Below are positions 1,809 to 64,000 of a stretch of 64,000 nucleotides of DNA, piece after piece; the stretch's first letter is position 1, and each line of letters starts with the position of its first letter. Location: the IMG/VR virus record IMGVR_UViG_3300023371_000069; one strand, 5' to 3'. Under the pieces are notes generated by a model. The model ran no database searches. It worked only from the letters and a program-made list of their open reading frames with translations, and was not told the DNA's origin. The DNA comes from a virus (lineage: Duplodnaviria > Heunggongvirae > Uroviricota > Caudoviricetes). The translations under genes were made by a program, and so were the position numbers.

Positions 1809-4061
1809 TTAAATAAATATAAAATCTAAACTTTCATCGGTACTATTATACACAAATTTTACCTTAGAGTCAACTGTAATCGCTCCGTTGATAGATGTAT
1901 CACCTTGCACATGGAAAGCTCCTGTGGGGGCAGCAGTTGAATTAATAGCAACCTTAGTAGCATTTGCATAATGATTGCCGCCAGAAGTCATTCTGACTGA
2001 ACCGTTGTAAGCCTCAGTATAAACCAAACGTCCACTCACTAAGTTGGTATTACCAGTACCACCTTTTGAAGGTTCAAGACAGGTAATTGCGGTCGCGACA
2101 CCAGAAGCAGCAATATAAACGGGAACACTAGCATTACCTGCGGCTGTATCAGCGGTATGTACCACCAATTCACCACTAGTTTCAGGATGCGTAACATCAT
2201 AATTGGTTGTACCATTATAGTAACGCCAAACTGCTCTATGTGTTCTATCAGCTGGTGTTAAATATAGAGTACTTCTAATACCAGAAGCACTACCTAAAGT
2301 AATACCTGCATATCCGTTAGCTGCAGGTGCAACAACAATACCTTCATCATCACCAGAGCCATAAGGTCTACCACTAACGATAAGACCTCCGTTTAGGGTA
2401 GTAACTTTTGATACAGTTAAAGTATTTGATAATGAAGCAGCTCCAGTTACAGATAAAGTATTACTTAAAGTTGTGGCGCCAGTAATGGCTAAAGTACTTA
2501 ATCCTTTAATAGAGCCAGTAACTTGTAAATTACCACCGATATTCACATCAGAAGCAAAAGAAGAAGCTGTGCCTACGTCTAAGCCACTAGGGAATTTAGA
2601 TTTACTATTTAAATATAAAACAATCTAATTTGTGGTGGAAGAAGTAGTTGGATTAATAACTAATGCATTATCATTAGAAGATAATACGACATGATTTTCA
2701 CTTGGTGTACCAAACACTAATTGAGTTGTATTACCAGTACTAGAACTAGCGTGAGAGCCTGTTAAATAAACATGACCTTTTGCATTTAGAATTCCTTTTA
2801 CAGTGGTGCCAGTTGCATTAACCTATAACCAAGTATTTTCTTCTTCCCAACCAGTACCAACATACCAATAATTTAAAGTTCCTCCTGCGCCATAGGCACC
2901 CATTTCTGCTTTTACGCTTGCAGTATCACTAGATGTATTTTTCTATTTCCAATCAATATATCGTGCCCATCCACCGCTTTTTGTAACTTCAGTAGTAATA
3001 CTTCCACTAGTATTCATTGTTAATTTATTTTCACTGGTTTGAATAACTAGAGGGCCAGACATGGTATCGCCTGTTTTTAAAACATATTTACCATTATAAT
3101 GACCATCAAGATAATTAGTAAAATTATCTTCATCAAGAATAACTCTCCAATCTTGCCAAGTACCATTATTTTTACCACGAACCGCAAGTTGACCAGTGCG
3201 ATAGTCTTGATAAATTTGAGTAATCCAAGAGTCGTTATATTTATTTACAATAGCTACACCATCACTAATACCAAGAATACCAGAAGTATCATTAACATAC
3301 CAAATACCAGTATTAGTGGCACTGCCAATCGCAATTCCTGTTGTAGCTGTTACATTAGTGCCAGCCATACGATAAGTAGTAGGCTATGGAATTCCATCAG
3401 TAGTAAAATAAACTGGTCTATCAGTACTACCACCTGATTTGGTTAAACGATTAGCTTTATCAGCAACACCAATTAGATTACCTGTAACATCACCAGTTAC
3501 ATTACCAACAACATTGCCAGTTAAATTTCCAATAAAACCGCCAGTAGAAGTTACAGTTCCAGACACAGATAGTGAGCCAGAAGCGTTACCATTTACAATA
3601 TATAAGTTAGCCCAACGCAAACTAGAAGTACCAAGGCTCTTTTTGTTAGTCTCACTTGGAACAACATTACCGCCAGAAGTAATAGTACTGGCAGTTGTTA
3701 AGCCATTTAGTTTACTTGTTGTGCCATTTAAATAATAAGATGTTGAGCCTAAATAAATATCACTACCAAACAAAGATTTTTTAGCTACATAAATACCGCC
3801 AGTTACTTGAATTGCTCCAGAACTTGCGGCTGTCGCTTCTGCACTGCCAGTAACAATAACTGCTGTTGATGCTCTTAGGTTTGCACCATATATATTTAAC
3901 CAAGCGTTATCTGCTGTACCTAAATTATAGGTTAAGGTTTCTCCTGGTATAATAACATCATAAGCAATTGCACCTTTATTTAGAAGTACATCTTCATTAT
4001 ATGTAGATACTCCAAGAAAACGAGAAGGCCCATTAACAATTAAATCTCTTAATTGTGCCAC
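1809..4061 (-). CDS. Tail fibre-like protein (750 aa with TAG=Gln)
   Basis: Joins ORFs 3384..4061, 2943..3368 and 1809..2546 through TAGs at 3384, 2943, 2823 and 2625. GTG start, TAA stop. Gly/Thr/Ser-rich fibre repeats (GNLTGNVVGNVTG, TLSVTGAASLSNTL) and a knob-like segment QIYQDYRTGQLAVRGKNNGTWQDW. Confidence 0.85.
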
Positions 4062-4096
4062 AATTTTTCACTCCTTTTCTTCAAAATCTATATATC

Positions 4097-4134
4097 AAAA
4101 AAAAATAGGGGTGAGGATAAATCCTCACCCCTAT
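4097..4134 (-). terminator. Intrinsic terminator
   Basis: 13-bp perfect stem ataggggtgagga/tcctcacccctat with a 4-nt loop, followed on the minus strand by a 9-T tract. Lies just after the stop at 4141. Confidence 0.85.
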
Positions 4135-4140
4135 GAATTA

Positions 4141-4362
4141 TTAGAGTGCAATTCCGTTGATGCCCTCTAAGGCTTTATCCTTGAAATTATCAAAGTCTAA
4201 TTCAACAACTTCTTTGTTACCATTATAACCATCCAAGTCAATAATAGTCATGTTGAAATATACCTCAGCACCAGAATAACTTGCGCTCATATTTGCGACT
4301 ACAACATCGTCAACTACGCTAGCGCCATTAAAGTTGACATTCATATTGTCCATTCTTAACAT
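4141..4362 (-). CDS. Small acidic hypothetical protein (73 aa, TAG-free)
   Basis: ATG with the SD AAGGAG, TAA stop, flanked by intergenic spacers. Function unknown. Confidence 0.75.
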   Translation of the reverse strand: MLRMDNMNVNFNGASVVDDVVVANMSASYSGAEVYFNMTIIDLDGYNGNKEVVELDFDNFKDKALEGINGIAL

Positions 4363-4451
4363 AATTGTAATCTCCTTTTCAATTCAATTTTGAGATTTAT
4401 TCTCAATAATAATGATGTTTATTTCATGAACTTTAATCTTATTAGTCCAAG

Positions 4452-6881: not shown

Positions 6882-7766
6882 TTATGCGAATACAAAATTA
6901 AAACATTCTTTTGTATCATCATATTGAATTTTACCAGCTTTTTTAAATTGAATAGCTCCTCCGTCAACACGCATATTCATTGTGGCGGTAATACCACCAA
7001 TAACTTCTAATGAACCGACAGATTGGTCACTAGAAGAATTATAATATGCATCAATACCACCAACAATCTAAAATCCACCATTAAATTTTGCAGTACCATT
7101 AATAGTAAGACCATCATTGAAAGTTTTATGGCCTCCAATGGTTTGAATATCATTAGTAATAATACCAGAAGCAGTAGTTGAAGCAGAAGGAATAACTGCA
7201 TCAAAATTTGTTCCATTTAATGCAAATCTAAATGTGGGACCTGCAGTTGTACCTGCAATCCAAGAAACTGCGGGAGCCGCAAATGCGGGAGTTCCATTAC
7301 CACCGACTAAGATAGCAGATTTTGCGCCTTTTGCCGTTACTTTGAAAGCATTAGTTCCATTACCATATAAAATACCACCAGCTGTTGCAGTAGTAATACC
7401 GGTACCACCAACATTGACAGGCAATGTTCCAAATTGAGGTGTTAAATTTGTTCCAGTAGAATAAAAAGCACCTTTTGCACTTGCAACACTAGCAATACCA
7501 TTTAAAGTAGTATTCTGAATTAAAACTGCATTTGCGGGAGTATTCTTTGATAAATCAACACCAGTACCACCGTGGTGATAACCTAACATCTATGGAATAA
7601 TATTCAAAAAGTTAACGCCATCATCAAATAATAAATAAGCAGAATAATCTTCATTAGTTGCAAGATAAAGGGTACCAGCTTCGTGTTTCAAATGATTTGC
7701 ATTTGAATTATCAAACTTACCTGAAGCATATTGACCCTACTTAAACTGTAAAGCTAAATCAGCCAC
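6882..7766 (-). CDS. Short tail fibre-like/adaptor protein (294 aa with TAG=Gln)
   Basis: GTG at 7766 after the SD AAGGAGG, TAGs at 7737, 7590 and 7068, TAA at 6882. Contains TLPVNVGGTGITTAT-type fibre motifs. The C-terminus KIQYDDTKECFNFVFA resembles that of 1809-4061. Confidence 0.8.
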
Positions 7767-7884: not shown

Positions 7885-8472
7885 TCAATATAACTCTTCC
7901 CAGAAGCTACCTAAAGCTTCACTAAATTCATCCAACTTTTGGATAATTTCATCATATACAGTAGGAGCTAAATCATAATCATGATTAATTTTTTGAACAT
8001 CCATACCATATAATACTTTACTCTTTGTTGGACGAGTGTTTAAGTTATAAATAAATTGCTGTCCTACTTCATCAACCTTGTAGAATCGAATTGAATATTG
8101 GACTGTACCTGCGACCGCAGTTGCACCGCCATCAATACACCAAGGAATCAACATTTTTTCCTCGTCAGCATAAGAAGTAACATCATAAAAAGGTACTGCA
8201 TAAATGCGAGCCTTATTATCTGCGGTTACATATTGAACGATGCATACTGTTTGTGACAAGTCCATATAATCAAAGAAACGGTCTACTTTAAAATAGACCG
8301 TTTCAGATTTATGGTCATGTTCAACACTCAGATACTCTGGCGTTTCAATTTGACGAGTTTTTAAGTCAATATTGTAGACTTTTTCAGACGAAGGTAAAAT
8401 AGCAATTGTTGGCCGATTGTTTGATTGAATATAAGCAAGATACTTATAATATTCTTCGGTTGAAATAATCAT
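7885..8472 (-). CDS. BppU-like (baseplate upper) N-terminal-domain protein (195 aa)
   Basis: Intact ORF with SD. The motif IDLKTRQI...DHKSETVYFKVDRFFDYMDL...VQY resembles BppU-type domains and is shared with 8494-10425. Confidence 0.6.
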   Translation of the reverse strand: MIISTEEYYKYLAYIQSNNRPTIAILPSSEKVYNIDLKTRQIETPEYLSVEHDHKSETVYFKVDRFFDYMDLSQTVCIVQYVTADNKARIYAVPFYDVTSYADEEKMLIPWCIDGGATAVAGTVQYSIRFYKVDEVGQQFIYNLNTRPTKSKVLYGMDVQKINHDYDLAPTVYDEIIQKLDEFSEALGSFWEELY

Positions 8473-8493
8473 TTTACCTCTCCTTTCAAGTTA

Positions 8494-10425
8494 TTAGAAA
8501 CTTACAACAAAGTTACCAGAGTGAGCATCTTCTCTTGCGGAGTAGGCACCATTTAATTCATTAGTTACATAGCAATGGATGAACATAACGTCACCATGAA
8601 TGTTACTACCATCAATCAATAGCTTATTGCCATCAAAGCTAACACCAGGAGTGTCCTGAGTCAATAGCTTATCTTCATCGTACCACTCATAGATTAGTCT
8701 ATCAGAGTGTAAAGCTACAGGCTCATCAAAAGCCTCATGCTCAATCACAATTTCAACTAAGCGGTTGGGGAATGCTTGAGCCTCAAGCTGCTTAGAATAT
8801 TCAGAAGAAGCAGGATATTTCAAGACTGGAGCTTCTGGAGCTCTAGTCACACGAGCAACATTACTCTCAATAGCAATATCATCGCGGTTCAACATAGAAG
8901 TAACATAAACCTTATACCAGCCGGGTTCAGCAGTCTCTAAAGTCAAATCATCAGTGACTTTACCAATCTTACCCTCGGTATTATTATCATAAGTGTGAGA
9001 AATAACATCAACCATGCCATCTTCTTTGTCATCGTTAACATTCTTCTTCCACAAATAAGTCATAGACTGATAAGCTGCAGCAGGCGCACCATCATTCTTA
9101 ACTTCAACATTCAATGTTAAGCCATCATTTTCATCTAGTAAAATACCATTTGCAGGCAATCCTAAAGCTTTTTCATCAGCGTCTTTATCACCAGAAACGA
9201 ATTCCAAAACCTCGGGACCAGGAATAGTAACACTCAAAGACTTAGAAGCAGAAGGGAATCCTAGCTTATGTTTAGCAATTAGCTTGTAAGTACCAGTTAC
9301 AACACCAGGAGCATCAGCAGCAGGACTAATGCTTTCAGTAATTCTATAAATGGCATAACGCTCATAAATAGCGATATTCTCTTCCTTAGTGGTTTCGAAC
9401 TGATTATGAGGCAATTCCTCATATCCATAAGGAGTAGCACTTGCGTTTTGTACATAGTAAACCTTATACTCAACTGGAGCATCATCTTCAGTTTCCTTGA
9501 AAGCTGTAGTTTCAGCACCTTGAACATTGATACCAGCAACGACAATATTGCCAGTTAAGTTACTGTACTCCCAATCATAAGACAAATGTCCCTGACCTTC
9601 AACCCAAGCTTGACCAGCCAAAGTTACAGCGTTATTCTTATCCAAATGAATAACATTGTTTTCAAAACCAATAGAATAGCCAGGAGCATCGAAGGAAGGT
9701 GGGTCTACAGTATCACTATCAGAAGTATGCTCACTATTTTCAATTGCTAGCTTAAATAAAGAAGCAGCATCATCATATTCAACATAATCAACTACGGGCT
9801 TTAATGCCTGCTTAATAGTGATAGTTGCAGGAACAGAGTTCCAGCTATAAACAACCTTGTCGCCATCTCTCTTTAAGAAACGTAAAGAGAATTCAACAGG
9901 ACCTTCTTGTGCGGTAACTGCACCAGTTAAAGGCCATACCAAAATCAACTTACCTAAATGATGCTCGCTCTCATAATCCATATAAGGAATAGGAGTTGCG
10001 CCCTGCTCACCATTTTTCAGCTTCCACTGAATATAAGGCTCAGTCATCATGAAGTCCATAGAATCGAAGAAGCGGTCAATGCGTAAGAACAAAGTCTCGG
10101 CAATTACGTCACCTTGAACGCCAGCGCCGTATTTCTTGAAACCATCAGGAATAGTAATAATTCTAGTATTAGCATTTACCTCTAAACAAGGTTCATCTAA
10201 AGGCAACATTAAATATTTAATTGGGTTATCAGCATTATCGACCAAGTCTCCCAAACGGGTAAAATACTTCTCCAAAGAAGAGAAACGATCGAATTGATTT
10301 AATTCGTCTTTTTCAGCTTGCTGCAGAGGAGTCTTCAATTTTCCCTGGCTATCCAGCTCTAACAGTAGCTTTCCAGCATCTGCAAAAAGGAATGAATAAT
10401 CTGCATTTTTAATAGAAGTAATCAT
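8494..10425 (-). CDS. BppU-like domain plus Ig-like beta-sandwich domains, baseplate/fibre carrier (643 aa)
   Basis: Intact ORF ending TAA-TAA. Contains VNANTRII...GDVIAETLFLRIDRFFDSMDF...YIQW, then YLW/YEW...G.Y.V.V patterns typical of Ig-like folds. Confidence 0.6.
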   Translation of the reverse strand: MITSIKNADYSFLFADAGKLLLELDSQGKLKTPLQQAEKDELNQFDRFSSLEKYFTRLGDLVDNADNPIKYLMLPLDEPCLEVNANTRIITIPDGFKKYGAGVQGDVIAETLFLRIDRFFDSMDFMMTEPYIQWKLKNGEQGATPIPYMDYESEHHLGKLILVWPLTGAVTAQEGPVEFSLRFLKRDGDKVVYSWNSVPATITIKQALKPVVDYVEYDDAASLFKLAIENSEHTSDSDTVDPPSFDAPGYSIGFENNVIHLDKNNAVTLAGQAWVEGQGHLSYDWEYSNLTGNIVVAGINVQGAETTAFKETEDDAPVEYKVYYVQNASATPYGYEELPHNQFETTKEENIAIYERYAIYRITESISPAADAPGVVTGTYKLIAKHKLGFPSASKSLSVTIPGPEVLEFVSGDKDADEKALGLPANGILLDENDGLTLNVEVKNDGAPAAAYQSMTYLWKKNVNDDKEDGMVDVISHTYDNNTEGKIGKVTDDLTLETAEPGWYKVYVTSMLNRDDIAIESNVARVTRAPEAPVLKYPASSEYSKQLEAQAFPNRLVEIVIEHEAFDEPVALHSDRLIYEWYDEDKLLTQDTPGVSFDGNKLLIDGSNIHGDVMFIHCYVTNELNGAYSAREDAHSGNFVVSF

Positions 10426-10455
10426 TTCTAAATATCATCCTTTCTTTAAATTTGC

Positions 10456-10479
10456 GAGGGAGAGATTACTCTCTCCCTC
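10456..10479. other. Intergenic stem-loop without a minus-strand U-tract
   Basis: gagggagag/ctctccctc inverted repeat between two co-oriented genes. Its stem resembles the terminators but no T tract follows. Confidence 0.6.
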
Positions 10480-10511
10480 TATTATTTTGATAATTTAATT
10501 AAATAATTAAA

Positions 10512-10721
10512 TTATTTCTGTCCAGCAACTTCTTTCCAAAGAGGAAGGTCAGCTTCTGGAATTACTACGGTATCATGGTAAGTCTTGCCATCGCAAGTCA
10601 AACGCTTACCCTGGTCTGCAGTTAGACGATATTTTCTAATATAATAAACATCTTCTAAATGCACAGGAGAACAAATAGTACCATTAGTACCTAAGTAAGT
10701 ATATAAAACTTGTTTAGTCAT
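10512..10721 (-). CDS. Small protein (69 aa), possible chaperone of the upstream giant protein
   Basis: ATG with the SD GGAGG 16 nt after the giant gene's stop, TAA stop. Function inferred from position only. Confidence 0.65.
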   Translation of the reverse strand: MTKQVLYTYLGTNGTICSPVHLEDVYYIRKYRLTADQGKRLTCDGKTYHDTVVIPEADLPLWKEVAGQK

Positions 10722-10737
10722 TTTTTATCCTCCTTTA

Positions 10738-13700
10738 TTATTTTCCGACAATAGAGATATTATCAATACTGTCAACGGTTACGAATGGTTGACCATTAGC
10801 TCCACCAACAATCCAATCATTCCAAGTGGTTTCCATACCAGATGGACAATAAATAGTTACGACAGAAGGTCTAGAGCCTTGACCATTTTCGATACAAGCG
10901 ACATCTCTCTTGTTCTTTAACCATTTTTCTTGAGTTAACTGAGAAGGAGAATTTTCTGCACCAATAGTTAAGGTTTTCAATGCAATACCCCAAGAAATTG
11001 CTCCACCTAAAATATCTCTTAGCATTGGATTCAATACGCAATCAACAGGTTCAGCTAAGTTACCAGTAGCAGAGAAAGCGTAAGTTTGAATCAATACTAA
11101 TGGGTCGCAGAATGTAAAGTTACTAAAGTAAGGACAGCTTTCAAAAGCGCCATTATTAATAACTCTCAACTTCTTCATTGCGGGGAAGTCAACATATTTC
11201 AAAGCTTTCATACGAGCAAAGAAATTGTTGTAAATAATACGAACTTCACAAGTAGCTGCACTATCAAAGAAGATATGAGTAATATACTCATCTTCAGTGA
11301 ATCCACGATATTCATAGATTGGTTGTCCAGCGGTTACACCATCAATGCCAGAAGGAGTTCGAGTTGGTAAAGTAATCTTACCTTTCAAGAAGCCATTCTT
11401 ATATTCAGGCTTCAAAGATAAAATGTATCCATTAGAATAATCATAAGTTCCGCCTTCACCATATGCGTCAGTATAACTAGAACCTACAGTGTAATTAAAG
11501 TATTTCACTGGGTCAGTTACATTTGCAAAAACACTTTCCTTCTTATATACCGCATAGAATGTATAATCTCTGGTTGCAGGATACATAGAAACATTGATTA
11601 AAGGAAGTTCTTCATCAGGAACATTTTCACCGTAAATAACTTTAGCCTTTTCAATGTCATTAGTCCAGCCCTTAAATGCATTACGCATATACAAATCATC
11701 GGCAGTTAGGTTTACAGGTGCGGGAACATTATCATTCATATAAGAACCCTTATCACTGTAAGCAACCTTAGCTACTTGTCTATATGTTGGGTCGAAGTAA
11801 TCTAAGAAGACTGCTTCGTATTCATGCTCAGTTAAAATAGCATAGAAAGGATAGTCAAACTTATCAGCTGCGAACAGCTTAGATTTTGCAGCCATCCAAG
11901 CTACATTATGAGCAGCAATCTTTTCTGCGTCAGTCATATCATCGTTGATATCACCATAAATAATTTTACTCTTGTCTGCGGCATTGGAAGAAGTAGACCA
12001 ACCATAGAAATCCCAGTGGGCTCTTTCTACTTTATACAAGCTATATGGGTTAGTAAACCACAAAGTGGAATCCCCAGCCATAGCTTCTTGACTAATCTTC
12101 TGAACACTAGGTCCATATCCATCAGAACTTAAGTAATCAACGAATCCTTCTGCACCAGTATCTTTATCTACTAAAACGAATTTAGCAGAGTATGCAGGAG
12201 TAACGTTAGCAAAGAAGAATGTTAAGTTAGGATAATACATCTGTAAAGTATCCTGAATAGAACTTTCTTCAATAGGAGTAGTATTATTGATATAAATTAC
12301 ACCAGTAATATTAGGTCTATTTAGACCACTAGCATCCTTGAAGCGAGGATTACTATACAAATTGGTTAACATAGTAATTGCATCATCGGCAACATTAGTA
12401 ATGTCTGCTGCAAATTCGCCAGCCTCAGTGCGGCCGCCATGTCCATCGTCACGATACAAGCCACCACTCAATACATCAATATTGAACTGCTTTTCATTAT
12501 AGACATAACCATCAGGATTATACAGAGTAAATCCATAGTGACCATTATCAATGTAATACTTCTTAGAAGCATCAAATACGTCACCTTCAGTTAAATGAGT
12601 ATAAGGACACCATTCAACATCAGTCATGGTTACATTGGCATTACCAGCATTATTATTTAAAGTATACAATTGCTTTAGAATGATGTAACTATTATAACCT
12701 AATTTACCGCCAATAAATTTAACTGTATTCATCTTGGAACTACCCTCGAAGAAACCTTCTAAGTATAATCCAGGATTTGCTTCTAATTCATCGGTAGTAA
12801 CATTTAAAGTGGGAATTTCATATGCATGGTCTTCATCATGGCCAATTAATTCAGTTAACAAGTTAGCTTGAGTTAAGGCCAAAGAACCAACGGATGCAGG
12901 CAAATACAAAGTATTTAACGCAACACCATCTGCAAATGTAACAGAAGTTAAGTTACTTGCACCAGTAGCTCTGAAGTTTTCCATCTTTTCAGAAGAGCTA
13001 AAATCAAGAGCAGTTTCATTTACTAGACCAATATTACAGAAGTTAACTTCTTTTAATAGAGGTAGTGAAGTAGGTACTGTAATACCATTTAACTTCTTAT
13101 TATACCAACCAATTTCAGTCTTAGTACTTGCATTACTATCTTTATAGTCAATGGTAGTACCATCATGACCAAGCTTCAAGCGAGTTAGCTTATCAGCCTT
13201 ACCCTCAAGTTTAAACTCAGTCCAATACATCTTACTTAAGTCACCGAAATCAGACATTTGGTTAGTACCATAAATATATAACAACTGTTCAGGATAGTTG
13301 TCACTATTTTTAATACCATTTTCCAATTCATTTAATACGAATTGCATCTTATGGATACCATCATATTTCTTAGAAGGATAGTTCATACTGTCATCACCAG
13401 CAGTAACATATGCGCTTCGAATTGGAGTAGGTTCAATCCAATATTCAGAGTCAAACTCGTGAGTCTTGGTTCCAAAAGGTACATTGTTTACCCAATATGG
13501 GTCATCAACGCTATTGGTCCATTTATCAGAGTGAACATCAGTAATATCAGAGTCAAGGTCACTTCTGTTGTTAGCAGAAATACGACCCCATAGACGGTTC
13601 GCACCACCACGAGCATAGTTACCTTGGGTCAACCAAGAGTCAATGTACTCAAGACGATTTCCAACGAACTGCTGACGAGATTGAGAACGGTCACCTTGTA

Positions 13701-18789: not shown

Positions 18790-18819
18790 TTATTTAAACT
18801 CCTTTCTTTCCTTTATAAA

Positions 18820-18860
18820 CAAAAAAATAGGTGAGAAGAATAATCTTCTTCCCACCTATT
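18820..18860 (-). terminator. Intrinsic terminator
   Basis: The minus-strand RNA forms aataggtg-g-gaagaa/ttcttc-t-cacctatt, with a G-U pair that exists only on the minus strand, followed by a T tract. Confidence 0.8.
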
Positions 18861-31301: not shown

Positions 31302-31315
31302 AACCTTTTTCTCCT

Positions 31316-49476: not shown

Positions 49477-50646
49477 TTATACATTAAACTTTATATTGAT
49501 TGGAGCTAAATTTAAGTTTTTACGCACAGTATTATAAGCTTCAGTCTCCATAAAAGATTCGCTTTTAGCAACATCATTGCTACTAGTAGTTTTTAAAGAC
49601 TTATACATTATATTAGCTAAAGACTTAGGTTTTAATCTTGGATTTTCATGCATTCTTTCCATTCTTTTAATAAGTCTATTAATTAAACTCTCAAGTCTTG
49701 TTAATGCTAATTCAAAGTTTTTACCTGAATCTGCTAATGTTGATTTAATCTAAATATTATAAATTACGGCTCCAGACTCATCAATAACAACAACGTCTCC
49801 TCCTGTCAACCAACTAGCTGAGTTTAATGATGCTAATAACCAAGGCTATACTACTTGTGGAGAACTAAAAATCCCTGAAAATCCACCGTGGTCATCTATT
49901 TTTAAATTTACAAGCTAATTACTATTAACAGCACTAGCAGACATTAAACCAAATAATTGTTTATTGTATTGAGCCACATGATTCATAAAAGCATCTAACT
50001 ATTTACCTTCGGCATTGCCCTAAGAAGCAAAAATAATTTCTCCATAACTACGTCCAGTAAAAGATTCATGTCTAGACTAATACAAAGGAGATTTTGAAGA
50101 AATTGTTTTATGTAATAATTGAGCATCTGTATTATTCATTTTATAGCCAGAAAGTTGATTACACATATCACTATAATGTCGTCTAAAAAAATTCTAAATC
50201 TCTTGAGCGGCCGCATATGCAGCTAAATCTTTATCCAAAGAACCAACTGCCGTATTTAATTGAGTTTTAGTAACATTAATACCACCCTCAGTCATTACAC
50301 TTGCTTCTTCTATATTCTAGGACCAAGTCAATTCTTTTTCTCCAAATTTAGTAATAGCAATTAAGGTAACAGCATTATTACCAAAATATTTTTTTTGAAT
50401 CTATTCCCATCTTTCATATATCTTTTTTGCACTATAAGATGACTGACGTCTCATAGCATTTTTCCATACTCCTGGATGAGACTGACTCTCTCTTAATTCC
50501 ATAGTATACATTTGAGATATTTCATCTTTTAATATTACTAAATCGTGATAAAATTCTTGATTTTTTTCATTATACCATTCTTCAAATATTTGAATAAAAG
50601 TATCTTTATCCAATAAATGTCCACCAAAAATAATACCTTCAGCCAT
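49477..50646 (-). CDS. Hypothetical protein (389 aa with TAG=Gln)
   Basis: ATG at 50646 with the SD AAGGAGG. Nine TAGs (50401, 50317, 50194, 50077, 50020, 49999, 49915, 49846, 49750), in frame with ORF 49477..49662, TAA stop. Confidence 0.8.
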
Positions 50647-51760: not shown

Positions 51761-52483
51761 TTAGTGAATATTTTTCATCCAATTGTCAGGTTGATTGTCG
51801 GGTTTGCCTCCAGCCAAACGACAACGGACGTCCATATCCCAATTAATATATAGCATATATCTTTCAACTAAGTCATATAATTGGAACATGGTTAAATCCA
51901 TTAGCTCCTACATAGGAATATGTAATCCCACTGTAAGTATTGAAAGATACTGGCTAAATATACTGATATTACTTTGACCCTTTTCAGCAGCAACCTTAGC
52001 TCGTCCTCGCATAAGTTTTTCTGCTATCTCTCGAGCTTTAGCATTTGCTGGATTAAAACTCTACTAATCCATAGGGCCAGTTTTCAGACAACAGATATTT
52101 GTCAACGCTGCTTGTAATGACTCAAAATTCTTTTCATCAATTTGAATTGTCATTCCATCTCCACTAAGTAGCACAGAGCGTGGAGTCATCATTACTTTAT
52201 ATTTTGGAAATATTAAAGTAAAGACTTGCTGCACCGCAAACTTTTTATCTGCCGCTTCTTTTTCTGACATTATCGTCATAAATATTTGAAAATTATTTGT
52301 ATCTCTTAAAAGAGATTCGTCCTTGATAAACATGGATTTATTTAAGCACAAACACTAAATACCTGTAAAAAAATCTGCTTCCCCTATAAATGCAATCTCT
52401 TTGATGCGAGGTTGATGAATAACTAACTAACATTCAGGAACGGGATAATCCGTTCCGCACATTAAAGATAATCGAGTATCCAT
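51761..52483 (-). CDS. Conserved-type tail-region protein, chaperone-like (240 aa with TAG=Gln)
   Basis: The ATG overlaps the upstream TGA. TAGs at 52427, 52355, 52064, 52061 and 51908, TAA at 51761. C-terminus LTMFQLYDLVERY...RLAGGKPD...WMKNIH. Confidence 0.75.
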
Positions 52484-53067
52484 CAATTATTAAACATTGC
52501 ATCAAAGTTTTTGATGAAGTCTTCTTCATCATTAGGATTAGGCATTTTCTTTTTATCCTCTTCTCCATGGATAGCTTGATACATTAAACACAATCCACCA
52601 AATTCATCCGTAAGAATCATTTGATTTGCGCCTAAAAATTCCAACTCACCAATTCCAGTTAAATGTTTTCCATTGAACATAGAATCAATCTCTGCCGCAA
52701 TCTTATAAGGACGCAACTCAAAGTCTTTCATTTTCCATTGGTCAAAATGACAAATAATGTCAAACTCAATAATATTATCTCTAAACTCGGGATTCTTACG
52801 ATTACCAGTAAAATTATCAAAACTAACAATAATATAATTCAATACTGAACCATCAACAGTTAGCTTAGGTACAATCTTAATCTATTCACCAAATAAACCA
52901 AGAGTTTCATCCTCGGTTAAATTAGGCTTATTCATACAATCACGAGTTGTGTAGTATAACATTTTTTTCAGACGCTCATTTTTCATAATCATCTGAACAA
53001 TCAAATTCATATCTTTTTCAGTAGACAAAAAACTTGATTTAGGATAAGAATAAACTTCTCTTTTCAT
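52483..53067 (-). CDS. Putative tail terminator/completion protein (194 aa with TAG=Gln)
   Basis: Joins 52882..53067 and 52483..52842 through the TAG at 52882. Motifs FDIICH.DQW and RPYKIAAEIDSMFN. Position fits. Confidence 0.65.
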
Positions 53068-53094: not shown

Positions 53095-54312
53095 TTAAAA
53101 TAAAGACTCAACAACAATTGTTTTACTATAATCTCCATATAGTAATTCAAATTGTCCACTATAAGAACTAACCCATCGAACAGATACTCGTCTTGGGTCA
53201 GTTGGGTCAGGAATTAATTCAACAGGATATTTCTTGTCGACATACCATTCATCAGCTTTTGTACCATTAAATTCATAATCATACAATTTCTTAACCTTAA
53301 TAAATGTTTCTCCAATAATATCCATTTCATCAACAGTTCCTTCATTTGGGTCTTTAATTGGTTCAATTAAACCACCAACGATACCAGCATCTACATCATC
53401 CTCAGTTTCATTAGCATAATACTCTACTGCGATAACTTCCAAGATTCCAGGAGTCGAAATCCAATCAGAAGCTTCAACACGCCAACAAGTATCATCGCCT
53501 TGAAGATAAAACTTACTATATCGTTTAAAATAATTCATTGTGTATTCATTTTTTGGCATTAAAATACTCAATGAGTGATTAGGAGTGTCAACACTAATTC
53601 CATGTTTTTGAATGAAGTTAATTTTAGTTTCCACTGGACCGCGCACGGCCGCATATGTGGTATGAATACCATCTTCATCCTCCCAAGCAATCTAATAAGA
53701 GCACTTGCGAATATCACCACGGAAATAAGCTAATTCAGTTAAATCTTGTAAATAAACTAACCAGTGAGTTTTTGTACCTAACCACTCAAACACATCGCCG
53801 CATTTGAAATTATATTCAAAACCCACAGAAATGATTTTATCATCATAGTCTTGTTTTAGTTTATTTGGATTAATAAGTGCGCGAACTGGCTTGCGGTTCT
53901 CCGCATCCACTCGCACGACCTCAGCAGCCTGATAAGAATTCCAAACTGCATGGTCTAAAGAACGACGCTTGTCTTTAATCATACGTTCTTGCTGTCTGTT
54001 ACCGCCCGCCTGACGAAAACGAGTAGCTTGTTCCCAAATACCAGTAATTTTGGGGTCTAGTTGCGTCAATACGATACCAGCCTCATCAATTTTATCTTGT
54101 GACAACAAATTCTCAATCTTTTGGATTGTTACAGTATCTAAATCAATGTTCATATTTTTAATTACTTTCATCAATTCTTCTACACGATTTTGCTATTCAA
54201 GTTGTTCGGCAGTAGAACCAGCTGGGTCAAACGGTCTTTTATCGTAAACTCCTAATCGACCTTTCATTAATCTAAAAGGGACACGGCTACTTAAATCATA
54301 ACCTGATGCCAT
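53095..54312 (-). CDS. Putative head-closure/head-tail joining protein (405 aa with TAG=Gln)
   Basis: ATG at 54312, TAGs at 54193 and 53692, TAA at 53095. Function inferred from position. Confidence 0.65.
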
Positions 54313-55188: not shown

Positions 55189-55809
55189 TTATTCAGCAGA
55201 TTCAGCAGGAGCCTCAACTGCAGGTTTAGTAACAATATTATATTTAGGTGCGGCCGCAGGAGCAGTTACAGTAGGTGCTGTACGACGTCCGGCAGGAGCT
55301 GCAGCAGGCTGTACTCTACGCTCGCCACCATTATTAGTTTTCAAGATTGTCTTCTGGTCATCTTCTTTATCTTCCTCATTGTGCTTCAATGCGGCTTCCA
55401 CATCAAAACCAGTCTTTTCCTTCAAAGCCTTACGCTTTGGGATATCAACCATAGGAATAGAAATACTCAACTTCTTAATTAAATCAATAACTCCAATGGG
55501 AGCAAAGTCAAGTGCATCCAAGAAAGCATCCAAGGAACCACTAGTAATCAACTTGGCAACATCAGCTTCACTCATATGATATTCAGGTTCAGTCTTAATA
55601 CGAGCAGCTTGAATTCCTTCAAGGTCCAAAATCTGCAAGAATTGACTTAACATAGTAACTCCACCAGGCTGGAAAGTTAATTCTTCTAACTCTTCAGAAC
55701 TAATTGGAATAATCTGACCAGGCTTGAATTCTCTACGAATTCCCTTGTCTGGAATCTTATAAACAACGGTGCTTGCACCACGGTTTTTTACTCTATACAT
55801 TGTACTCAT
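55189..55809 (-). CDS. Hypothetical head-region protein (206 aa, TAG-free)
   Basis: The true start is MSTMYRVKN at 55809 after the SD AAGGAG, because the ORF-track start lies inside a terminator hairpin. Ala/Pro-rich tail. Confidence 0.75.
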   Translation of the reverse strand: MSTMYRVKNRGASTVVYKIPDKGIRREFKPGQIIPISSEELEELTFQPGGVTMLSQFLQILDLEGIQAARIKTEPEYHMSEADVAKLITSGSLDAFLDALDFAPIGVIDLIKKLSISIPMVDIPKRKALKEKTGFDVEAALKHNEEDKEDDQKTILKTNNGGERRVQPAAAPAGRRTAPTVTAPAAAPKYNIVTKPAVEAPAESAE

Positions 55810-55842
55810 TTTTATATCTCCTTTTTCTCTGTTTTTAAAATG

Positions 55843-55880
55843 AAAAAAAGGGGGAAGAGGGGATATCCCCACTTCCCCCT
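55843..55880 (-). terminator. Intrinsic terminator after the major capsid gene
   Basis: GC-rich stem agggggaag-a-gggg/cccc-a-cttccccct followed by a minus-strand 7-T tract. Confidence 0.85.
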
Positions 55881-55903
55881 CTTAGTTATATATTAATATT
55901 TAA

Positions 55904-57016
55904 TTAGGCATTAACGTCCTTAACGTTATAGGACATATCAACATAGTTAGAGCTGTCCCAAATAGAGTCAGCCAAATCATACTGACCTAGCAACTCAGTA
56001 TCAGCATAAGCGCAGATGTTATTAGCTAACATAGCAGTTACGCCAACCTTCTTGTAAACCTGAATCTCACGAGAACGGTCAGCATTTACATACTCGTCAA
56101 CGATTGTACCACCCTCGAAAGCAATCTTAACAGGCTTGCTATCAGCACCACTTGGGATGATATAGCAATAACCAGGATTGATTACCTTACGAGTATTGGT
56201 CTCGTCTTCCAAGCCCTGAGGTAGGATGATAACCTTACGTCCCTTGTACATAGCCAAGTGACCAGTATCCCACAACTCTTGCTTCATATTCTCAGTCCAA
56301 CGCCAACCCTGCTCAGGAACCATCTTAACTGCGAACTCATAAGTGCAGTAAATAGAAGGCTCACCATAAGCGGAAGCGATAACCAACAAGTTGTCGAAAG
56401 CCTTTTCATCGAAGCCAGTAGCAACAACAATATTTGCAGGAGGTAACTGGTTAACAGAAGCAGCTAGAGCATGTCCAACTTCCTTCATAATTAACTCATC
56501 CATACCTTCCATAACAATATTAGTTACTTCAGCGAAGTCCACACGACCGTCTAGGAACTCCTCGAATCCAATCTGAGCAGCTCCACCGATAGCAGAAGTA
56601 CGAACTTCGAAGCTCTCTTCTTCTGCAGGACCTAGCTTAAATACTTCGTAAATACCAGCCAATCCAACACGAGTGATGAACTGCTTAGCACGAGAACGAA
56701 CGTCTCTCTTACGACGGAAAATAGGCTTGTCGCCCTGAGCGAACTGCTTAGTCTCGGCGAACTGCATATAAGCCATTTCAACCTTCTTAGGCAGAACCTC
56801 GTCCAAAGTCTCTTCGATAACAGAGAAAATCAAATTCTTGTTATCACGATATAAAGAATAAGTACCAGCCAACTCATTGAACTCACGACGTAGAGTCTCG
56901 TTCAAAGCGGCATAACTAAAGTTTTCACCGTTAAAGCTATAAGACACAGAAGCAGAAGGGTCAGCCTTTGCAACAGTCTTAGCCAACTGTACTAAATTAT
57001 TTCTATCTAAAGCCAT
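55904..57016 (-). CDS. Major capsid protein (370 aa, TAG-free)
   Basis: Size, position after the protease/scaffold gene, a following terminator and codon bias typical of highly expressed genes. Confidence 0.8.
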   Translation of the reverse strand: MALDRNNLVQLAKTVAKADPSASVSYSFNGENFSYAALNETLRREFNELAGTYSLYRDNKNLIFSVIEETLDEVLPKKVEMAYMQFAETKQFAQGDKPIFRRKRDVRSRAKQFITRVGLAGIYEVFKLGPAEEESFEVRTSAIGGAAQIGFEEFLDGRVDFAEVTNIVMEGMDELIMKEVGHALAASVNQLPPANIVVATGFDEKAFDNLLVIASAYGEPSIYCTYEFAVKMVPEQGWRWTENMKQELWDTGHLAMYKGRKVIILPQGLEDETNTRKVINPGYCYIIPSGADSKPVKIAFEGGTIVDEYVNADRSREIQVYKKVGVTAMLANNICAYADTELLGQYDLADSIWDSSNYVDMSYNVKDVNA

Positions 57017-57033
57017 TACTCTTCTCTCCTTTC

Positions 57034-57918
57034 TTACGCAATACGTAGAATCTTAACGCCCTTTTGATGGTCGGGCATAGTATAAACCTTAACAACCTGC
57101 CATTTCATAGCCTGGCTGTTATCCTTAGCCAAGATACCCTTAGCATTAGGTGCCAAAATATCACCAACAGCCAATTCAGACTCAAGAATCATGTTAGTAG
57201 TATAATGGTCACCAACATTAGTCTTGAATACACGAGGTACCATAGTAGTGCCAGTAGGCATCATCTTCTCAGGATGCTTAACAGCACGCAGCTTCATAAA
57301 CAAACGACGACGATAATCTTCCTTAATTTCAGGATTGTTAATATCGTTCATCTCATATGGGTCATAAACAGTAGAAGCGACACCAAAATCGTCAACGCCA
57401 GGATAACTTACTTTACCAGTCTCTTCATCAACAACTGGCGCAACAACATTACCATTAGCGTCAAAAACAGGTCTTGCTTCAAAAGAGCCATTCTTATACA
57501 CTTCGCTAACACCCTGTAGCAAACGAGTAGGTCCATATAGCTCCTCAGCCATCTTGCTGTTATCGCCATCCAATGGACTATAAACACGGGCCTGATAGTT
57601 GCCCTTAATCATTGCGAATTCGCAATCCAACTGATGCTCACGATACAACTTAGTTTCGTTGTAAACCAGCATCCATTCACCAGTATCATGGTCATCAGAA
57701 CCAAAGTTTACAAGGCCAGCTGCATAGTCATACTTAACAAACTGTCCCTGCTCCAGAACCTCAATAGAGGGGTCTGCAGGTAACTGAGCATAAATCTGAG
57801 CAGTGCGCTGTGCAGACAAGTGGTTAGGCTCAACCTGGCCGTAGCCCAGTTCAACATATCCGCCATTCTTCACAGAAGCCTGACTAGTAATATGCTTACT
57901 TAAAAACTCTTTAAGCAT
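57034..57918 (-). CDS. Putative capsid decoration/minor head protein (294 aa, TAG-free)
   Basis: Between scaffold and major capsid genes. YGQVEPNHLSAQRTAQIYAQLPA start and KVYTMPD.QKGVK end. Confidence 0.6.
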   Translation of the reverse strand: MLKEFLSKHITSQASVKNGGYVELGYGQVEPNHLSAQRTAQIYAQLPADPSIEVLEQGQFVKYDYAAGLVNFGSDDHDTGEWMLVYNETKLYREHQLDCEFAMIKGNYQARVYSPLDGDNSKMAEELYGPTRLLQGVSEVYKNGSFEARPVFDANGNVVAPVVDEETGKVSYPGVDDFGVASTVYDPYEMNDINNPEIKEDYRRRLFMKLRAVKHPEKMMPTGTTMVPRVFKTNVGDHYTTNMILESELAVGDILAPNAKGILAKDNSQAMKWQVVKVYTMPDHQKGVKILRIA

Positions 57919-57945
57919 TTCTATATTTCCTCCTTTTAGTTTTTA

Positions 57946-59484
57946 TTACATTTCACTCGCAACAGAACGAATAGCTTTAATCCAAGCTGGAGCATCATCA
58001 TTCATGCCACCATTTAAACTAAAGGTCATTGGGTCTTTGCCATCGTTCTTATCATCATCAAGGTTGAAACTGACCTTGTTGCGAACACATAAAATAGAAA
58101 GCTCTGCTTCAATTTCTTTTGGAGAATATTTGTCAATATTTTCTACGACATCTTTCTTATCTTCATCAGAAAGCATATAGAAACTTGCAATCATCTTCTC
58201 TTTTTCTGCCTTCTCAATACCCTTCTTGAAAGTAGTCAACTCATTTAGCTGGCTCTGTAGAGTAGTGATAGTGGACTGTGCATTAGCATAATCAGTCTCT
58301 AAAGCAGAATATTTATTGCTTAGCTCTACATATTCTTGAATTTCCTCAAGATTGTATTTTTCCTTTTTGCCCTGCTTTTTCTTTTTCTCGTCCTCATCAT
58401 CGGAATCGTCGTCATCCTCGCACTCACACTCGGACTTCTTCTTTCCACACTTAGGGCATTTTTCCTCTTCGCCGCCCTCATCATCGTCGTCCTCGGGCTT
58501 CTTACCCTCGTCCTTCTTTGACTTAGCATATTCAGCAACTGCGGCTGCGTCGAACTGTGGCTCTTCAGCTGGAGTATAATCCTCCAATAACTGAGCCTCG
58601 GCCGCAAACACAACAGAGCCATCTTCGGCAACGGAGAAATCAAGACGATAGTACTTTTCATCGGCAGTTAGAACAGCAAATAGCTTCTGTCCCTCGTCTT
58701 CACAGACACTCTCAATGCCGTAAGTACCTTCTACATGGCTATAAAGAGCGGTCCACAAAGCGTCACCGATTTCAACAGCGTATCTAGTAAACACTTTTTC
58801 TCCTCCTTTATTTAGTAATTCTTTCAATTCGTTCATCATAGAGAATACTTGCTCTTTAAAACCATCAGCAAAAGCGAATTGAATTACAGGGGCACCAATA
58901 GTAGAACCTTCGAAGCAAGGTTCATTATTCACACCCAATGTACAAAGTTTTGAGATAATTGCTTCATTGATAATGAAAAATTTAGGTTCTCCATTACCAT
59001 CTTTTGACCAATGTGCATCAATTGTGTCTTCATCGAGTTCCATAGAATGATTATTACCCTGGGATAAAATTCTACGACACTCGGGATACTGACCAGTCCA
59101 TAGCCAGCCTTCAGTCATCATATATTCACGCTCATTCATTCCATCATCTAAAAACTTTTGAAACCAAACCTTAGCATTTAAATCAACAAATCCATAGGGT
59201 CTAGTTGTATCCTTAATTTCAAACTTACCATTTGAAATATCAATAATGCGGTTATGCTCCTCAAAGTCGCCCTTTTCTTCATTATAAAATCCGACAATAG
59301 GGCAGCCGGGGAGGGAGTTTGCCATTTGTTTAGCAGTCTCCTTGGTAATAATACTTCTATTACGATTTGGTTCATCACCAACATAACACACTTTAATTTG
59401 ACATTTAGAAATCAAAGGATTAAGAGGAGTGATATTGATAAATTCAACAGGTGTGTCCAATTTAATACTTGTATGCATTGGCAT
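57946..59484 (-). CDS. Prohead protease-scaffold fusion (512 aa, TAG-free)
   Basis: N-terminal protease-like part (VCYVGDEPNRN, HSMEL, LCTLG...EPCFEGS), then an acidic/coiled-coil scaffold-like region. Directly after the portal gene. Confidence 0.75.
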   Translation of the reverse strand: MPMHTSIKLDTPVEFINITPLNPLISKCQIKVCYVGDEPNRNRSIITKETAKQMANSLPGCPIVGFYNEEKGDFEEHNRIIDISNGKFEIKDTTRPYGFVDLNAKVWFQKFLDDGMNEREYMMTEGWLWTGQYPECRRILSQGNNHSMELDEDTIDAHWSKDGNGEPKFFIINEAIISKLCTLGVNNEPCFEGSTIGAPVIQFAFADGFKEQVFSMMNELKELLNKGGEKVFTRYAVEIGDALWTALYSHVEGTYGIESVCEDEGQKLFAVLTADEKYYRLDFSVAEDGSVVFAAEAQLLEDYTPAEEPQFDAAAVAEYAKSKKDEGKKPEDDDDEGGEEEKCPKCGKKKSECECEDDDDSDDEDEKKKKQGKKEKYNLEEIQEYVELSNKYSALETDYANAQSTITTLQSQLNELTTFKKGIEKAEKEKMIASFYMLSDEDKKDVVENIDKYSPKEIEAELSILCVRNKVSFNLDDDKNDGKDPMTFSLNGGMNDDAPAWIKAIRSVASEM

Positions 59485-59497
59485 TTTAATCTCCTCC

Positions 59498-61153: not shown

Positions 61154-61167
61154 AACTCCACCTCCTT

Positions 61168-61524
61168 TTAATATCCTGCTAAATTCATAATATAGTCATA
61201 GGAGATTAAATTTTCGTCAGTATATGGAATTTCAATCAACTTAAAATCATGTAAAGCACAAAAGCGTCGTTTTTGATTATCATTATACTATTGTTGGAAG
61301 AAACCTTTTTTACCACCGAATTTCGCACTAGGCTCATAATGTTGCTTACCTTGATACTCAATAATAAAATCAATTTTTCCATCATCATCAAAAACGACAA
61401 AATCAAATCTTAAAGGGCGACCATTTGGGCTCTTTAAGTCGGGGAAGATATACTCCATTTTAAAGGGGAGTTCAGCTTCCTTTAAGATTTCTTCAATCTT
61501 AATTTCTCCTCTCGAAGCTCTCAT
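61168..61524 (-). CDS. Small PD-(D/E)XK/Vsr-like endonuclease-domain protein (118 aa with TAG=Gln)
   Basis: LRFDF...IIEYQGKQHY...QQ(Q)YNDNQKRRFC...KLIEIPY. The second half of the motif appears only when the TAG at 61288 is read through. Confidence 0.75.
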
Positions 61525-61535
61525 AGTCAACCTCC

Positions 61536-63272
61536 TTAATTGAAGAATGCCCAATCAGCGGCATTAAACTTCTTTTTCTTTTTCTTTTTATCTTCTTCTT
61601 GCTTAATATAATAAAGACCATATTCAAAAGCGGAAAATTTATCTTTCCTAATTCCACGATTAGCTTGTTTTAAGATGATATTTACGCCTTCATTTTCTTC
61701 ACGCAAATTCATCATCTCTTCCTTTAATATGGAAGTTAAGGTAAATGGTTTTAAATATTCTGCCCTTTCCTCAGGCTTCATATTTTGTCCCATTTTAGTT
61801 GCCAATAATTTTTCCTTAGCTCCACGCTCGTCAATAAGGAATTTTACCTTACCGGCTTGTAGCTGAGTCTGCGCATTTGCGTGACACTCAGTATTAATAG
61901 GAGCATTTGCTTTTAGAATATACATAGCATCAAACTCAGTATTTGCAGTTCGATATTTTTTATAATAACCATCTTCATCATTCTCAACACCAAAGTCTGG
62001 GAAGAAGTCACCATTTTCATCTTCTTGAGATTTAATCATATAGTCAACTAATCCAATACCAAGACCATTACCGTCGATTACGATTGTGCGGGCTTTATAC
62101 TTATAATATAATTTCTTAATTCTAATTGCCTGGTCCTCAAAATGTTCATCCGCAAAAGTATAAATATTAACCAAAGACTTAATTGCGGGACCTTGTGCTT
62201 GAGGGGTTACCTTAAATACACAAACAACAGAGTCACATCCCTTACGACCTACGTCAACTGATAGGATATAGTAGGCGTTCGCCGCACTCCTGCCGGAATG
62301 CTCATATTCAGGTTTCTGTAACTTACGATTTCTATCAAAGAACTCACCATTAAAGAATGCATCTTCAACAGTACCAGACCAACGACTCTCATATTCACGA
62401 GCAAAAGAAGCTTCATTGAAAGTTCCGTCATTCTTTAAATCTTTAATAAAATTCGCATCAAGCAATTTGACCAAAACAGGAATTCGCCAAGTACCACCCA
62501 TGATAATTGCTTTTTCAGGCTCGGTTACCATACGAACAAGTAAGGTAATTAATTTATCATATGGGAAAGTATTTTTCCATCCTGCGGTTGTGACATAAAT
62601 CTGACTCTTATTCAGCGTCTCTTCTGGATGAACAGTTCCATCTAAACATCTACGAGAAACGTTAGTGGTAGGAATAATAACTTCAGAAAGGATGGTACCA
62701 TCAACGCCAACACATTCCTCAATTAGTCCTCCATGACGACGCTTACCACGCGAACTCTCACGAGCCGCAATATTATCGAAATAAGAACCATTTTTAAAGA
62801 CATATTTACAATAGTCTTTACCCTCTAGTGTTTTACCTCGACCCCAGTCAATTTCTCGACGGAACGCAGGTACTAGAGTACAAATTTCTTGAACCTTTTC
62901 TTTTACGATGCCAGCTGCCTACTCTTTACCACCAGATGTAACAAATAACTTTGCCCCTGGATATAAAACACAACGGCACATCAAAACCATAATAGAAAGG
63001 AAAGATTTAGAATACGCACGGGGGAATACCATGTAAACATATTTATATCGCATTGCCGCACGTAAGAAAACTCGTTGATAGAAATAAAATTTTAATTCCT
63101 TCTTAACTTCTGGATTACCACCATCTTGTAAGAAGTCAATAAACATATCTGGGTATTCTCGCCAGTAAGCTACATAGTCTCTGGCTACAGGAATTATGGC
63201 ACGCACTCTTTCTTCAGAAAGACCAACCTTTTTACGAGATTGTGATAAATTCAATAAATCCTGCAGTGCCAT
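61536..63272 (-). CDS. terL: Terminase large subunit (578 aa with TAG=Gln)
   Basis: Walker A-like PRAYSKS, TSGGKE(Q)AAGI, Walker B region RGKRRHGGLIEE, coupling motif YVTTAG, and nuclease motifs LSVDVG, IVIDGNG and KDKFSA. Single TAG at 62919, with the gap to 62531 translated stop-free. Confidence 0.92.
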
Positions 63273-63274
63273 AA

Positions 63275-64000
63275 TTATCCACCTAAAATTGATTTTAAGA
63301 AAGCTTCATCATCATCCGCAAGCTCATCTTCGAAATCATTAAAAGCAGTAAAGTCCTCATCATGTAAAACTTTCTCAGCATTATCTTCGAATAGAGAAGC
63401 TTCAAATGCATCTTCGTCCTCAGAACCATCATCGGACTCAAGTTTAGCTTCATTTTCCTTATCTTTTTCAATTTCACGAAGAGCGTGTTCAATCATAGAA
63501 CTCAAGTTAGTCTCTTCATTAATTAAATCGCGTGTATAACTCTGTAAATCTTGTAATGTTCTATCAACTTTATCATTTGGTTCATCAATATAATATCTAG
63601 GAATAAATCCCTCTCTCTCACAGAGAGCAACCAATTCACCAATACTATCAATAAATTCGCCAGACTCAGCTTTATTCTGAGCCGCAGTAAACTTACCAGA
63701 CTTCATTAAACTGTCATAAACTTTACTCATCTTCTGGAAGCCCTCAATATCGCCAATGTCGATTAATTGATTCGCCTTGAGAGATGTCTTACATACTAAT
63801 TTCAAAGTATCAATGTGTCCGGCGCCTTGAATATCATATGATTGCATCATTTCTTCATATAACTATTCAAGTCTAATCCACTCTTCTGGCTTATAGGTTT
63901 TACCCCATTTCAATCGAAGATATGTTCTATCTTCTTCAGTTAAATCATCCACAAAATCGTCTTGGCCTCCACTTTGCTCCGCAAAGTAGTCGTCTCCAGA
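63275..64000 (-). CDS. 5'-truncated gene upstream of terL, candidate terminase small subunit
   Basis: Open from the window edge through the TAG at 63863 (WIRLE(Q)LYEEMMQS) to the TAA at 63275, 2 nt before the terL ATG. Function inferred from position only. Confidence 0.55.

Follow-up and report, generated by a model that had tools for sequence, protein, structure and literature searches.

Evidence that TAG is read as glutamine in the morphogenesis module of a large phage from animal faeces

The stretch of DNA analysed here, hereafter the window, comprises 64,000 nucleotides of the Caudoviricetes virus record IMGVR_UViG_3300023371_000069 and corresponds to the reverse strand, positions 25160-89159, of a single viral contig of 105,768 bp (G000:C1) with a GC content of 35%. 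Within the genes of this window the triplet TAG is used as a sense codon, and alignments, codon usage and the tRNAs of related phages support glutamine as the residue that it encodes. Taken together, the results make it very probable that a siphovirus of approximately 190 kb from animal faeces, with Bacillota as its probable hosts, has its morphogenesis module in this window and that TAG serves there as an ordinary glutamine codon, having largely replaced CAG in the TAG-bearing genes. Under this model TAG would be read by a phage-encoded tRNA with a CUA anticodon, tRNA(CUA), situated in a large tRNA array outside the 105.8-kb fragment, and loaded with glutamine by a host enzyme. The TAG-free leftward early block and the replication genes, such as DNA polymerase and the anaerobic ribonucleotide reductase NrdD, would then be translatable by the host unaided, and the late genes, among them a sigma-factor gene, the virion genes and a Holliday-junction resolvase, would need the suppressor.

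In-frame TAG and the residue it encodes

All convincing genes of the window lie on the minus strand. When open reading frames (ORFs) were called with TAA and TGA as the only stops, TAG being read through, 34 consecutive ORFs with small gaps or overlaps were obtained, leaving 97.5% of the window coding. Twenty of the 34 genes contain in-frame TAG, 127 in total, with zero in-frame TAA and zero in-frame TGA. Chance is excluded as the source of this pattern because both of the latter triplets are abundant in the other two frames of the same genes (TAA 609 and 1275, TGA 301 and 1511). All 33 complete genes terminate in TAA (28) or TGA (5), the remaining gene running off the window. Under translation table 11 the 20 TAG-bearing genes break into 147 pieces, the largest piece of the tape measure protein being 474 of 3115 amino acids (aa), and under table 15 they are intact. 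An earlier note, made from the letters of this DNA, had counted approximately 125 in-frame TAGs in 20 genes and proposed that reading through them restores full-length terminase large subunit (TerL), portal, tape measure and tail proteins ending in TAA or TGA. The recount and the comparison of the two tables agree with that description, which extends to all complete genes, and the contexts that it quoted (IYFQ-TAG-G, DQ-TAG-LALAQ, NI-TAG-LE and ME-TAG-EI) were all located in the window.

No sign of programmed, context-dependent read-through was seen. The base after TAG is no different from the base after CAA or CAG (p = 0.14), the TAGs are scattered along the genes without positional bias, and four TAG-TAG pairs are present, for which reasons ordinary decoding of the codon is favoured. 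That TAG is a sense codon in the window is confirmed.

To assign a residue to the codon, 80 related loci were fetched via the portal protein (52-76% identical) and aligned with the window proteins, in which each TAG was written as X. Glutamine was the first residue opposite the window TAGs, filling 312 of 1005 cells against a background of approximately 3-4%, followed by TAG itself (187), lysine (84), glutamate (81) and asparagine (74). In likelihood scoring with empirical substitution profiles measured on the same alignments, the lead of glutamine over the second-best residue exceeded 800 log units in the raw score and was 17 when each of 22 columns was counted once. The reverse test was similar, with 1101 of the 2171 in-frame TAGs of the relatives inside these alignments facing glutamine in the window. 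Against G002, a complete relative that uses the standard code, 83 TAG sites could be aligned and glutamine was again the commonest residue (18 sites, background 3.9%); it also scored first in this comparison, both over all sites and at the sites outside the tape measure gene (-78.7 versus -97.3 for serine).

The sites conserved in cultured phages or within the window itself are consistent with this result. The TerL sequence SGGKE-TAG-AAGIV corresponds to SGGKEQAAGIA in Enterococcus phage H1 and to SGGKEQAANIA in phage E3, the sequence QQ-TAG-YND of the HNH endonuclease aligns with RQQYND in cultured standard-code phages, and at TAG 190 of the portal protein FFD-TAG-AF aligns with YFEQ-F, Enterococcus phage H1 having glutamine at this position. 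In the pair of adjacent paralogous genes (BLASTP E = 4e-22), KME-TAG-EIN of the upstream copy aligns with NIEQEVD of the downstream copy, as the earlier note had seen. Codon usage points the same way: the TAG-bearing genes are nearly without CAG (CAA 122 and CAG 9 in the tape measure gene) and the TAG-free genes retain it, as expected if the TAGs arose from CAG through C-to-T changes, which in turn argues for glutamine. The columns, the likelihood scores, the sites in cultured phages and the codon usage thus support the reading of TAG as glutamine that the earlier note had considered most likely.

Decoding of TAG and competing explanations

Relatives of the phage carry an array of 30-40 tRNA genes, and each TAG-recoded relative for which the array has been read has a tRNA(CUA). 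The TAG-recoded genome G006, whose portal is 76% identical and which falls within the subclade of the window, encodes 39 tRNAs including one tRNA(CUA); the same type is present in the TAG-recoded genomes G004, G005 and G008, and none is present in the standard-code G002. The four CUA tRNAs are class I molecules of 72-75 nt with no long variable arm, with U1, an unpaired position 72 and G73, and of the other tRNA types in the comparison the tRNA-Gln of the family alone shares U1 and G73, its U1 being paired with A72. GlnRS recognises tRNA-Gln by a weak 1-72 pair together with G73 and U35, and the corresponding feature for the GatCAB amidotransferase is U1-A72. On the basis of the acceptor ends and these established identity rules, charging of the CUA tRNA with glutamine by host enzymes is plausible. 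A host origin of the charging activity is suggested because no phage synthetase or release factor was found, the five family genomes searched, three of them at least 92% complete, containing no RF-1 domain and no GlnRS/GluRS-type gene. Of the decoding components for which the earlier note had recommended a search, tRNA(CUA) was therefore present in four relatives, and the contig yielded no tRNA and the five genomes neither GlnRS nor release factor.

Any tRNA with a CUA anticodon is labelled 'Pyl' by ARAGORN. Pyrrolysine decoding relies on a tRNA-Pyl of atypical fold together with pylS and pylBCD; the CUA tRNAs of the relatives are ordinary cloverleaves scoring 44-52 bits on the general tRNA model and the alignment columns show glutamine, and on these two grounds, no search for the pyl genes having been made, pyrrolysine was rejected as the residue at TAG. 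The tRNA arrays of relatives (G006 L136:8460-9085, G005 L125:8255-8367 and G008 L137:2177-2466) also hold a ROOL RNA (323 bits), a RAGATH-33 RNA and a transfer-messenger RNA (tmRNA).

Several results weigh against the decoding of TAG as glutamine by a phage tRNA in a late-gene programme. No tRNA was found in the window or in the whole 105.8-kb contig with ARAGORN at default settings or with Rfam (with introns allowed and a lowered threshold ARAGORN gave 177 obviously spurious matches, which were discarded), and in overall sequence the CUA tRNAs of the relatives are no closer to tRNA-Gln than to tRNA-Met, tRNA-Trp or tRNA-Thr. Just 22% of the aligned TAG sites face glutamine in G002, compared with 40% of the CAA/CAG sites, and the 51 sites of the tape measure gene cannot by themselves separate glutamine from serine or lysine, which fit about as well because the TAG sites of this gene are hardly conserved. 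Further, a guanylate kinase gene in the replication region contains four TAGs, and the division between early and late genes is thus not clean. The absence of tRNAs from the contig would be best explained by an assembly gap at the array. CheckV estimated the contig to represent approximately 56% of a genome of approximately 190 kb, and the contig is collinear with part of the related genome G001 (12.2-105.5 kb); this record measures 176.6 kb, is 92% complete and likewise has no tRNAs. The gap is suggested because the two ends of G001 map to approximately 123.5 kb and 153.5 kb of G002 and so flank the tRNA array of that genome (136.6-152 kb). Look-ups aimed at the array of the phage itself returned 21 contigs by exact protein match and, for an exact 37-mer, a 4-kb metagenome contig and nothing in viral_contigs, from which records of this genome may be missing.

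The same absence of tRNAs, in the 105.8-kb contig and in G001, is what would favour an alternative in which no phage suppressor exists and the host either reads TAG through or itself uses the altered code. However, neither record is complete and the break in G001 coincides exactly with the position of the array, a tRNA(CUA) is present wherever the array of a TAG-recoded relative was read, and the occurrence of standard-code phages and of phages reading TGA as tryptophan in the same family indicates a phage-borne trait; TAG is not known to be read as glutamine by any bacterium. Host suppression alone is therefore considered very improbable. An equally small probability is given to TAG being a sense codon for another residue, whether serine, lysine, asparagine, glutamate, leucine or alanine. 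This alternative draws on the near-tie in the tape measure gene, on serine being the second commonest residue opposite TAG in G002 (12 sites against 18 for glutamine), and on the failure of the CUA tRNAs to group with tRNA-Gln by overall sequence, but glutamine is the clear winner over all sites and is the residue of cultured phages at the conserved ones, the long variable arm seen in serine, leucine and tyrosine tRNAs is missing from the CUA tRNAs, which carry the U1 and G73 of tRNA-Gln, and TAG increases where CAG decreases.

Assembly or sequencing errors, or decaying pseudogenes, have nothing in their favour beyond the fragmentation of the genes under table 11, and this reading, to which practically no probability is assigned, is already refuted. 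Only one of the three stops occurs in frame, and TAG recurs in the corresponding genes, often at identical sites, of relatives drawn from many metagenomes. The same TAGs also recur in contigs from other samples. The tape measure stretch is contained whole in six faecal-metagenome runs and partly in others, none of those listed being on record as RNA. Three faecal samples that carry no flag as source of the record gave independent contigs, assembled run by run; these match with zero differences and span 44 or more of the 68 TAGs in the two giant genes (those of the tape measure and of the 2547-aa tail protein). Variant letters among these per-run contigs were confined to three positions, all in one diverged contig and none on a TAG. 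The TAGs thus persist on re-assembly, a point that the earlier note had wished to see checked, and glutamine decoding by a phage tRNA(CUA) charged by the host remains the very probable explanation.

Uneven use of TAG between genes

TAG accounts for 16% of the glutamine-type codons of the window, with very uneven use between genes. Across approximately 50 TAG-recoded relatives the TAG share is 0.01-0.04 in the capsid, tube and probable scaffold genes, compared with 0.3-0.5 in their neighbours; the share is 0.01 in the scaffold-position and capsid genes, and the 512-aa and 227-aa head genes avoid TAG less strongly. In the capsid, tube and probable scaffold genes CAG makes up 55-72% of CAA plus CAG, in recoded and standard-code relatives alike, the corresponding share in other late genes of recoded phages being 10-18%. 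In the most highly expressed genes TAG thus appears to behave as a disfavoured, poor codon. A tentative extension, for which the odds are judged to be rather against, is that TAG acts as a dosage dial besides a timing lock, being poorly read and hence purged from the high-copy virion proteins (capsid, scaffold and tube, which use CAG), and tolerated or favoured in low-copy proteins such as the tape measure, tail tip, portal and terminase, with the TAGs of the late sigma-factor gene making late transcription suppressor-dependent in a feed-forward switch.

That sigma-factor gene (phrog_5767; G000:C1:23555-24625, L140:3555-4625) is the first gene of the rightward late block, close upstream of the window, and contains four TAGs; its ortholog in G001 has three. 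Late transcription may depend on TAG suppression via this factor. Elsewhere on the contig, no TAG occurs in the DNA polymerase and NrdD genes or in the conserved genes of the leftward block, which is presumably early, and the Holliday-junction resolvase gene has three TAGs, which, like those of the sigma-factor gene, are all opposite glutamine in G001. Recoding is therefore concentrated in late genes, and the early and replication genes are readable in the standard code, with the exception of guanylate kinase; lysis genes were not identified. Such a distribution is in keeping with a published proposal in which recoding postpones the expression of late genes. In two small conserved ORFs of the early block, G000:C1:7864-8166 (-) and 3475-3687 (+) (L139), TAG, in one case TAG-TAG, is found exactly where the homology to G001 stops, and there TAG may still be a stop.

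One block of four tail-end genes in the window (7885-20644) is entirely without TAG, which at the window's mean TAG share has a probability of approximately 3e-9. The block keeps CAG and its GC content at third codon positions (GC3) is above that of its neighbours. The absence is specific to the window's phage, as the G001 ortholog of the 2683-aa gene in the block has 15 TAGs, and the 2683-aa protein is nearer to TAG-free versions (42% identical in G002 and 46% in L143) than to that of G001 (29%). The likeliest origin would be a cassette exchanged with a standard-code lineage, probably one for host recognition. A search for a close donor of the 2683-aa gene returned two loci only, 40-46% identical, and a recent transfer is thus unsupported.

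Code changes in the family, known phages and the gene set

In per-locus counts the majority of relatives show TAG recoding, at TAG shares of 0.1-0.34, and several use the standard code. Three loci (L071, L072 and L053) have in-frame TGA instead of TAG; 19 out of 29 of these codons face tryptophan in the window proteins, which indicates that TGA is tryptophan in these lineages. In the portal tree two TAG-recoded loci form a trio with the window, and this trio is sister to a standard-code pair that includes G002 and G003 (support 100/98); over the whole tree, no fewer than five changes of code state are required by branches with good support. G003, which is complete and has no in-frame TAG in its head locus, encodes a tRNA(UUA) (L122, G003:C1 approximately 123975-124047) beside tRNA-Val(UAC). 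This ochre-type suppressor occupies the slot of the array after tRNA-Val in which G004 and G005 have tRNA(CUA), and may represent a stage before or after a change of code.

The nearest cultured phages are large siphoviruses of Enterococcus, Geobacillus, Bacillus, Brevibacillus and Lactococcus. In tblastn comparisons with annotated phages, the Enterococcus phage H1/EF1 group and Geobacillus virus E3 are 50-51% identical to the window in TerL (51% for the phage H1 terminase), 40% in the capsid and 42% in the tube protein, and have the same gene order; however, they use the standard code, without in-frame TAG and with glutamine at the conserved TAG sites. Gut phages in which TAG is read as glutamine (table 15) are known among crAss-like and Lak phages and the 'gemstone' clades (Borges et al., 10.1101/2021.08.26.457843), with proteomic proof for crAss-like phages (Peters et al., PMC9523058). 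Like these phages, the window's phage comes from an animal gut, has TAG within structural and other late genes and replication genes free of it, has relatives that encode a tRNA(CUA), and belongs to a clade of mixed codes; it is, however, of a separate lineage, a siphovirus with a 3115-aa tape measure protein and cultured relatives that infect Enterococcus, Geobacillus, Bacillus and Lactococcus. Standard-code, TAG-recoded and TGA-recoded members are also mixed in the Agate clade (Borges et al., 10.1101/2021.08.26.457843), and the resemblance to this or another of the Borges clades (large genome, Firmicutes-type relatives, mixed codes, livestock gut) is a lead only; some Lak and Agate phages have RF2, unlike the five genomes of the window's family.

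The closest described recoded phage is phAss-1, of the proposed genus Phassvirus (Babkin et al. 2023, PMC10607447; OQ749652), a human-gut siphovirus with a 136-kb genome in which TAG is glutamine in the TerL, portal, tape measure and tail genes. It has a tape measure protein of approximately 3150 aa, suppressor tRNAs, no synthetase of its own and predicted hosts among the Clostridia, and members of its genus share 83-86% nucleotide identity (PMC10607447). Membership of the window's phage in Phassvirus was rejected, as amino-acid identity to OQ749652 is 37% for the portal and 45% for TerL and the genomes of the window's clade are larger, at approximately 190 kb. The earlier note had likened the recoding to that of Lak and crAss-like phages; it was right that the code change is known in principle, but the phage is neither of these, being a distant relative of Phassvirus. 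With the code change already known in several gut-phage groups, it adds a further member to a known kind of phage and no new principle. The family is nevertheless a compact natural series in which standard, TAG-as-glutamine and TGA-as-tryptophan lineages occur among portals at least 52% identical, the TAG-poor subclade of the window adjoining standard-code relatives, one of them with the tRNA(UUA), and this makes it useful for studying how a code change begins and spreads. To the published model of late-gene regulation the window adds detail at the level of genes: TAG has taken the place of CAG, genes of high expression are spared, and one cassette of tail genes has no TAG.

Annotation with table 11 hides TerL, the portal and the 3115-aa tape measure protein, and table 15 restores them. 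The genes discussed are collected in Table 1. A Pfam search with ten window proteins gave a single match, LRR_5, and a PDB sequence search with the window TerL gave no match. The HNH gene lies between the terminase and portal genes in the window, and in Enterococcus phage EF1 an HNH gene interrupts the terminase region.

Table 1. Genes and gene blocks of the window, with their TAG content and, where given, the residues or codons facing TAG in relatives.
Feature	Position	Strand	TAG content and remarks
phrog_3314 family gene, starts outside the window	63275..64000	-	1 TAG; opposite in relatives Q 32, TAG 20, K 9
Terminase large subunit, 578 aa	61536..63272	-	1 TAG, codon 118; opposite Q 62, TAG 9
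HNH homing endonuclease, 128 aa	61168..61554	-	phrog_9084, phrog_559; 1 TAG; opposite Q 58, TAG 19
Portal, 551 aa	59498..61153	-	phrog_2739, E = 1e-81; 3 TAGs
Four head genes (512-aa protein, probable scaffold, major capsid protein, 227-aa protein)	55189..59484	-	TAG-free, CAG-rich
Probable scaffold	57034..57918	-	TAG-free; assigned by position only
Major capsid protein	55904..57016	-	TAG-free; assigned by homology
Head-tail gene, 192 aa	54591..55169	-	1 TAG
Head-tail gene, 102 aa	54296..54604	-	1 TAG; opposite TAG 31, Q 15
405-aa gene	53095..54312	-	2 TAGs
Virion structural protein, 194 aa	52483..53067	-	phrog_6123; 1 TAG; opposite N 45, Q 5
241-aa gene	51761..52486	-	5 TAGs including one TAG-TAG; Q or TAG dominant in 4 of 5 columns
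Major tail (tube) protein, 350 aa	50730..51782	-	Homologs annotated major tail/tail tube; CAA 1, CAG 11, TAG 0
389-aa gene	49477..50646	-	9 TAGs, 41% of glutamine-type codons
Tape measure, 3115 aa	39462..48809	-	phrog_4211; CAA 122, CAG 9, TAG 51
Tail protein, 2547 aa	31694..39337	-	17 TAGs
Paralog pair, two 122-aa genes	30933..31684	-	BLASTP E = 4e-22; upstream copy (31316-31684) with 1 TAG
Tail gene, 994 aa	27908..30892	-	5 TAGs
Tail protein, 885 aa	25276..27933	-	phrog_32343, phrog_1887; 5 TAGs
395-aa gene	23741..24928	-	5 TAGs
505-aa gene	20662..22179	-	3 TAGs
Block of four tail-end genes	7885..20644	-	TAG-free; 115 CAA/CAG codons, 0 TAG
2683-aa protein, BspA-type leucine-rich repeat	10738..18789	-	Within the TAG-free tail-end block
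294-aa gene	6882..7766	-	3 TAGs
Virion protein, 805 aa	4452..6869	-	phrog_26670; 8 TAGs including one TAG-TAG
750-aa gene	1809..4061	-	4 TAGs

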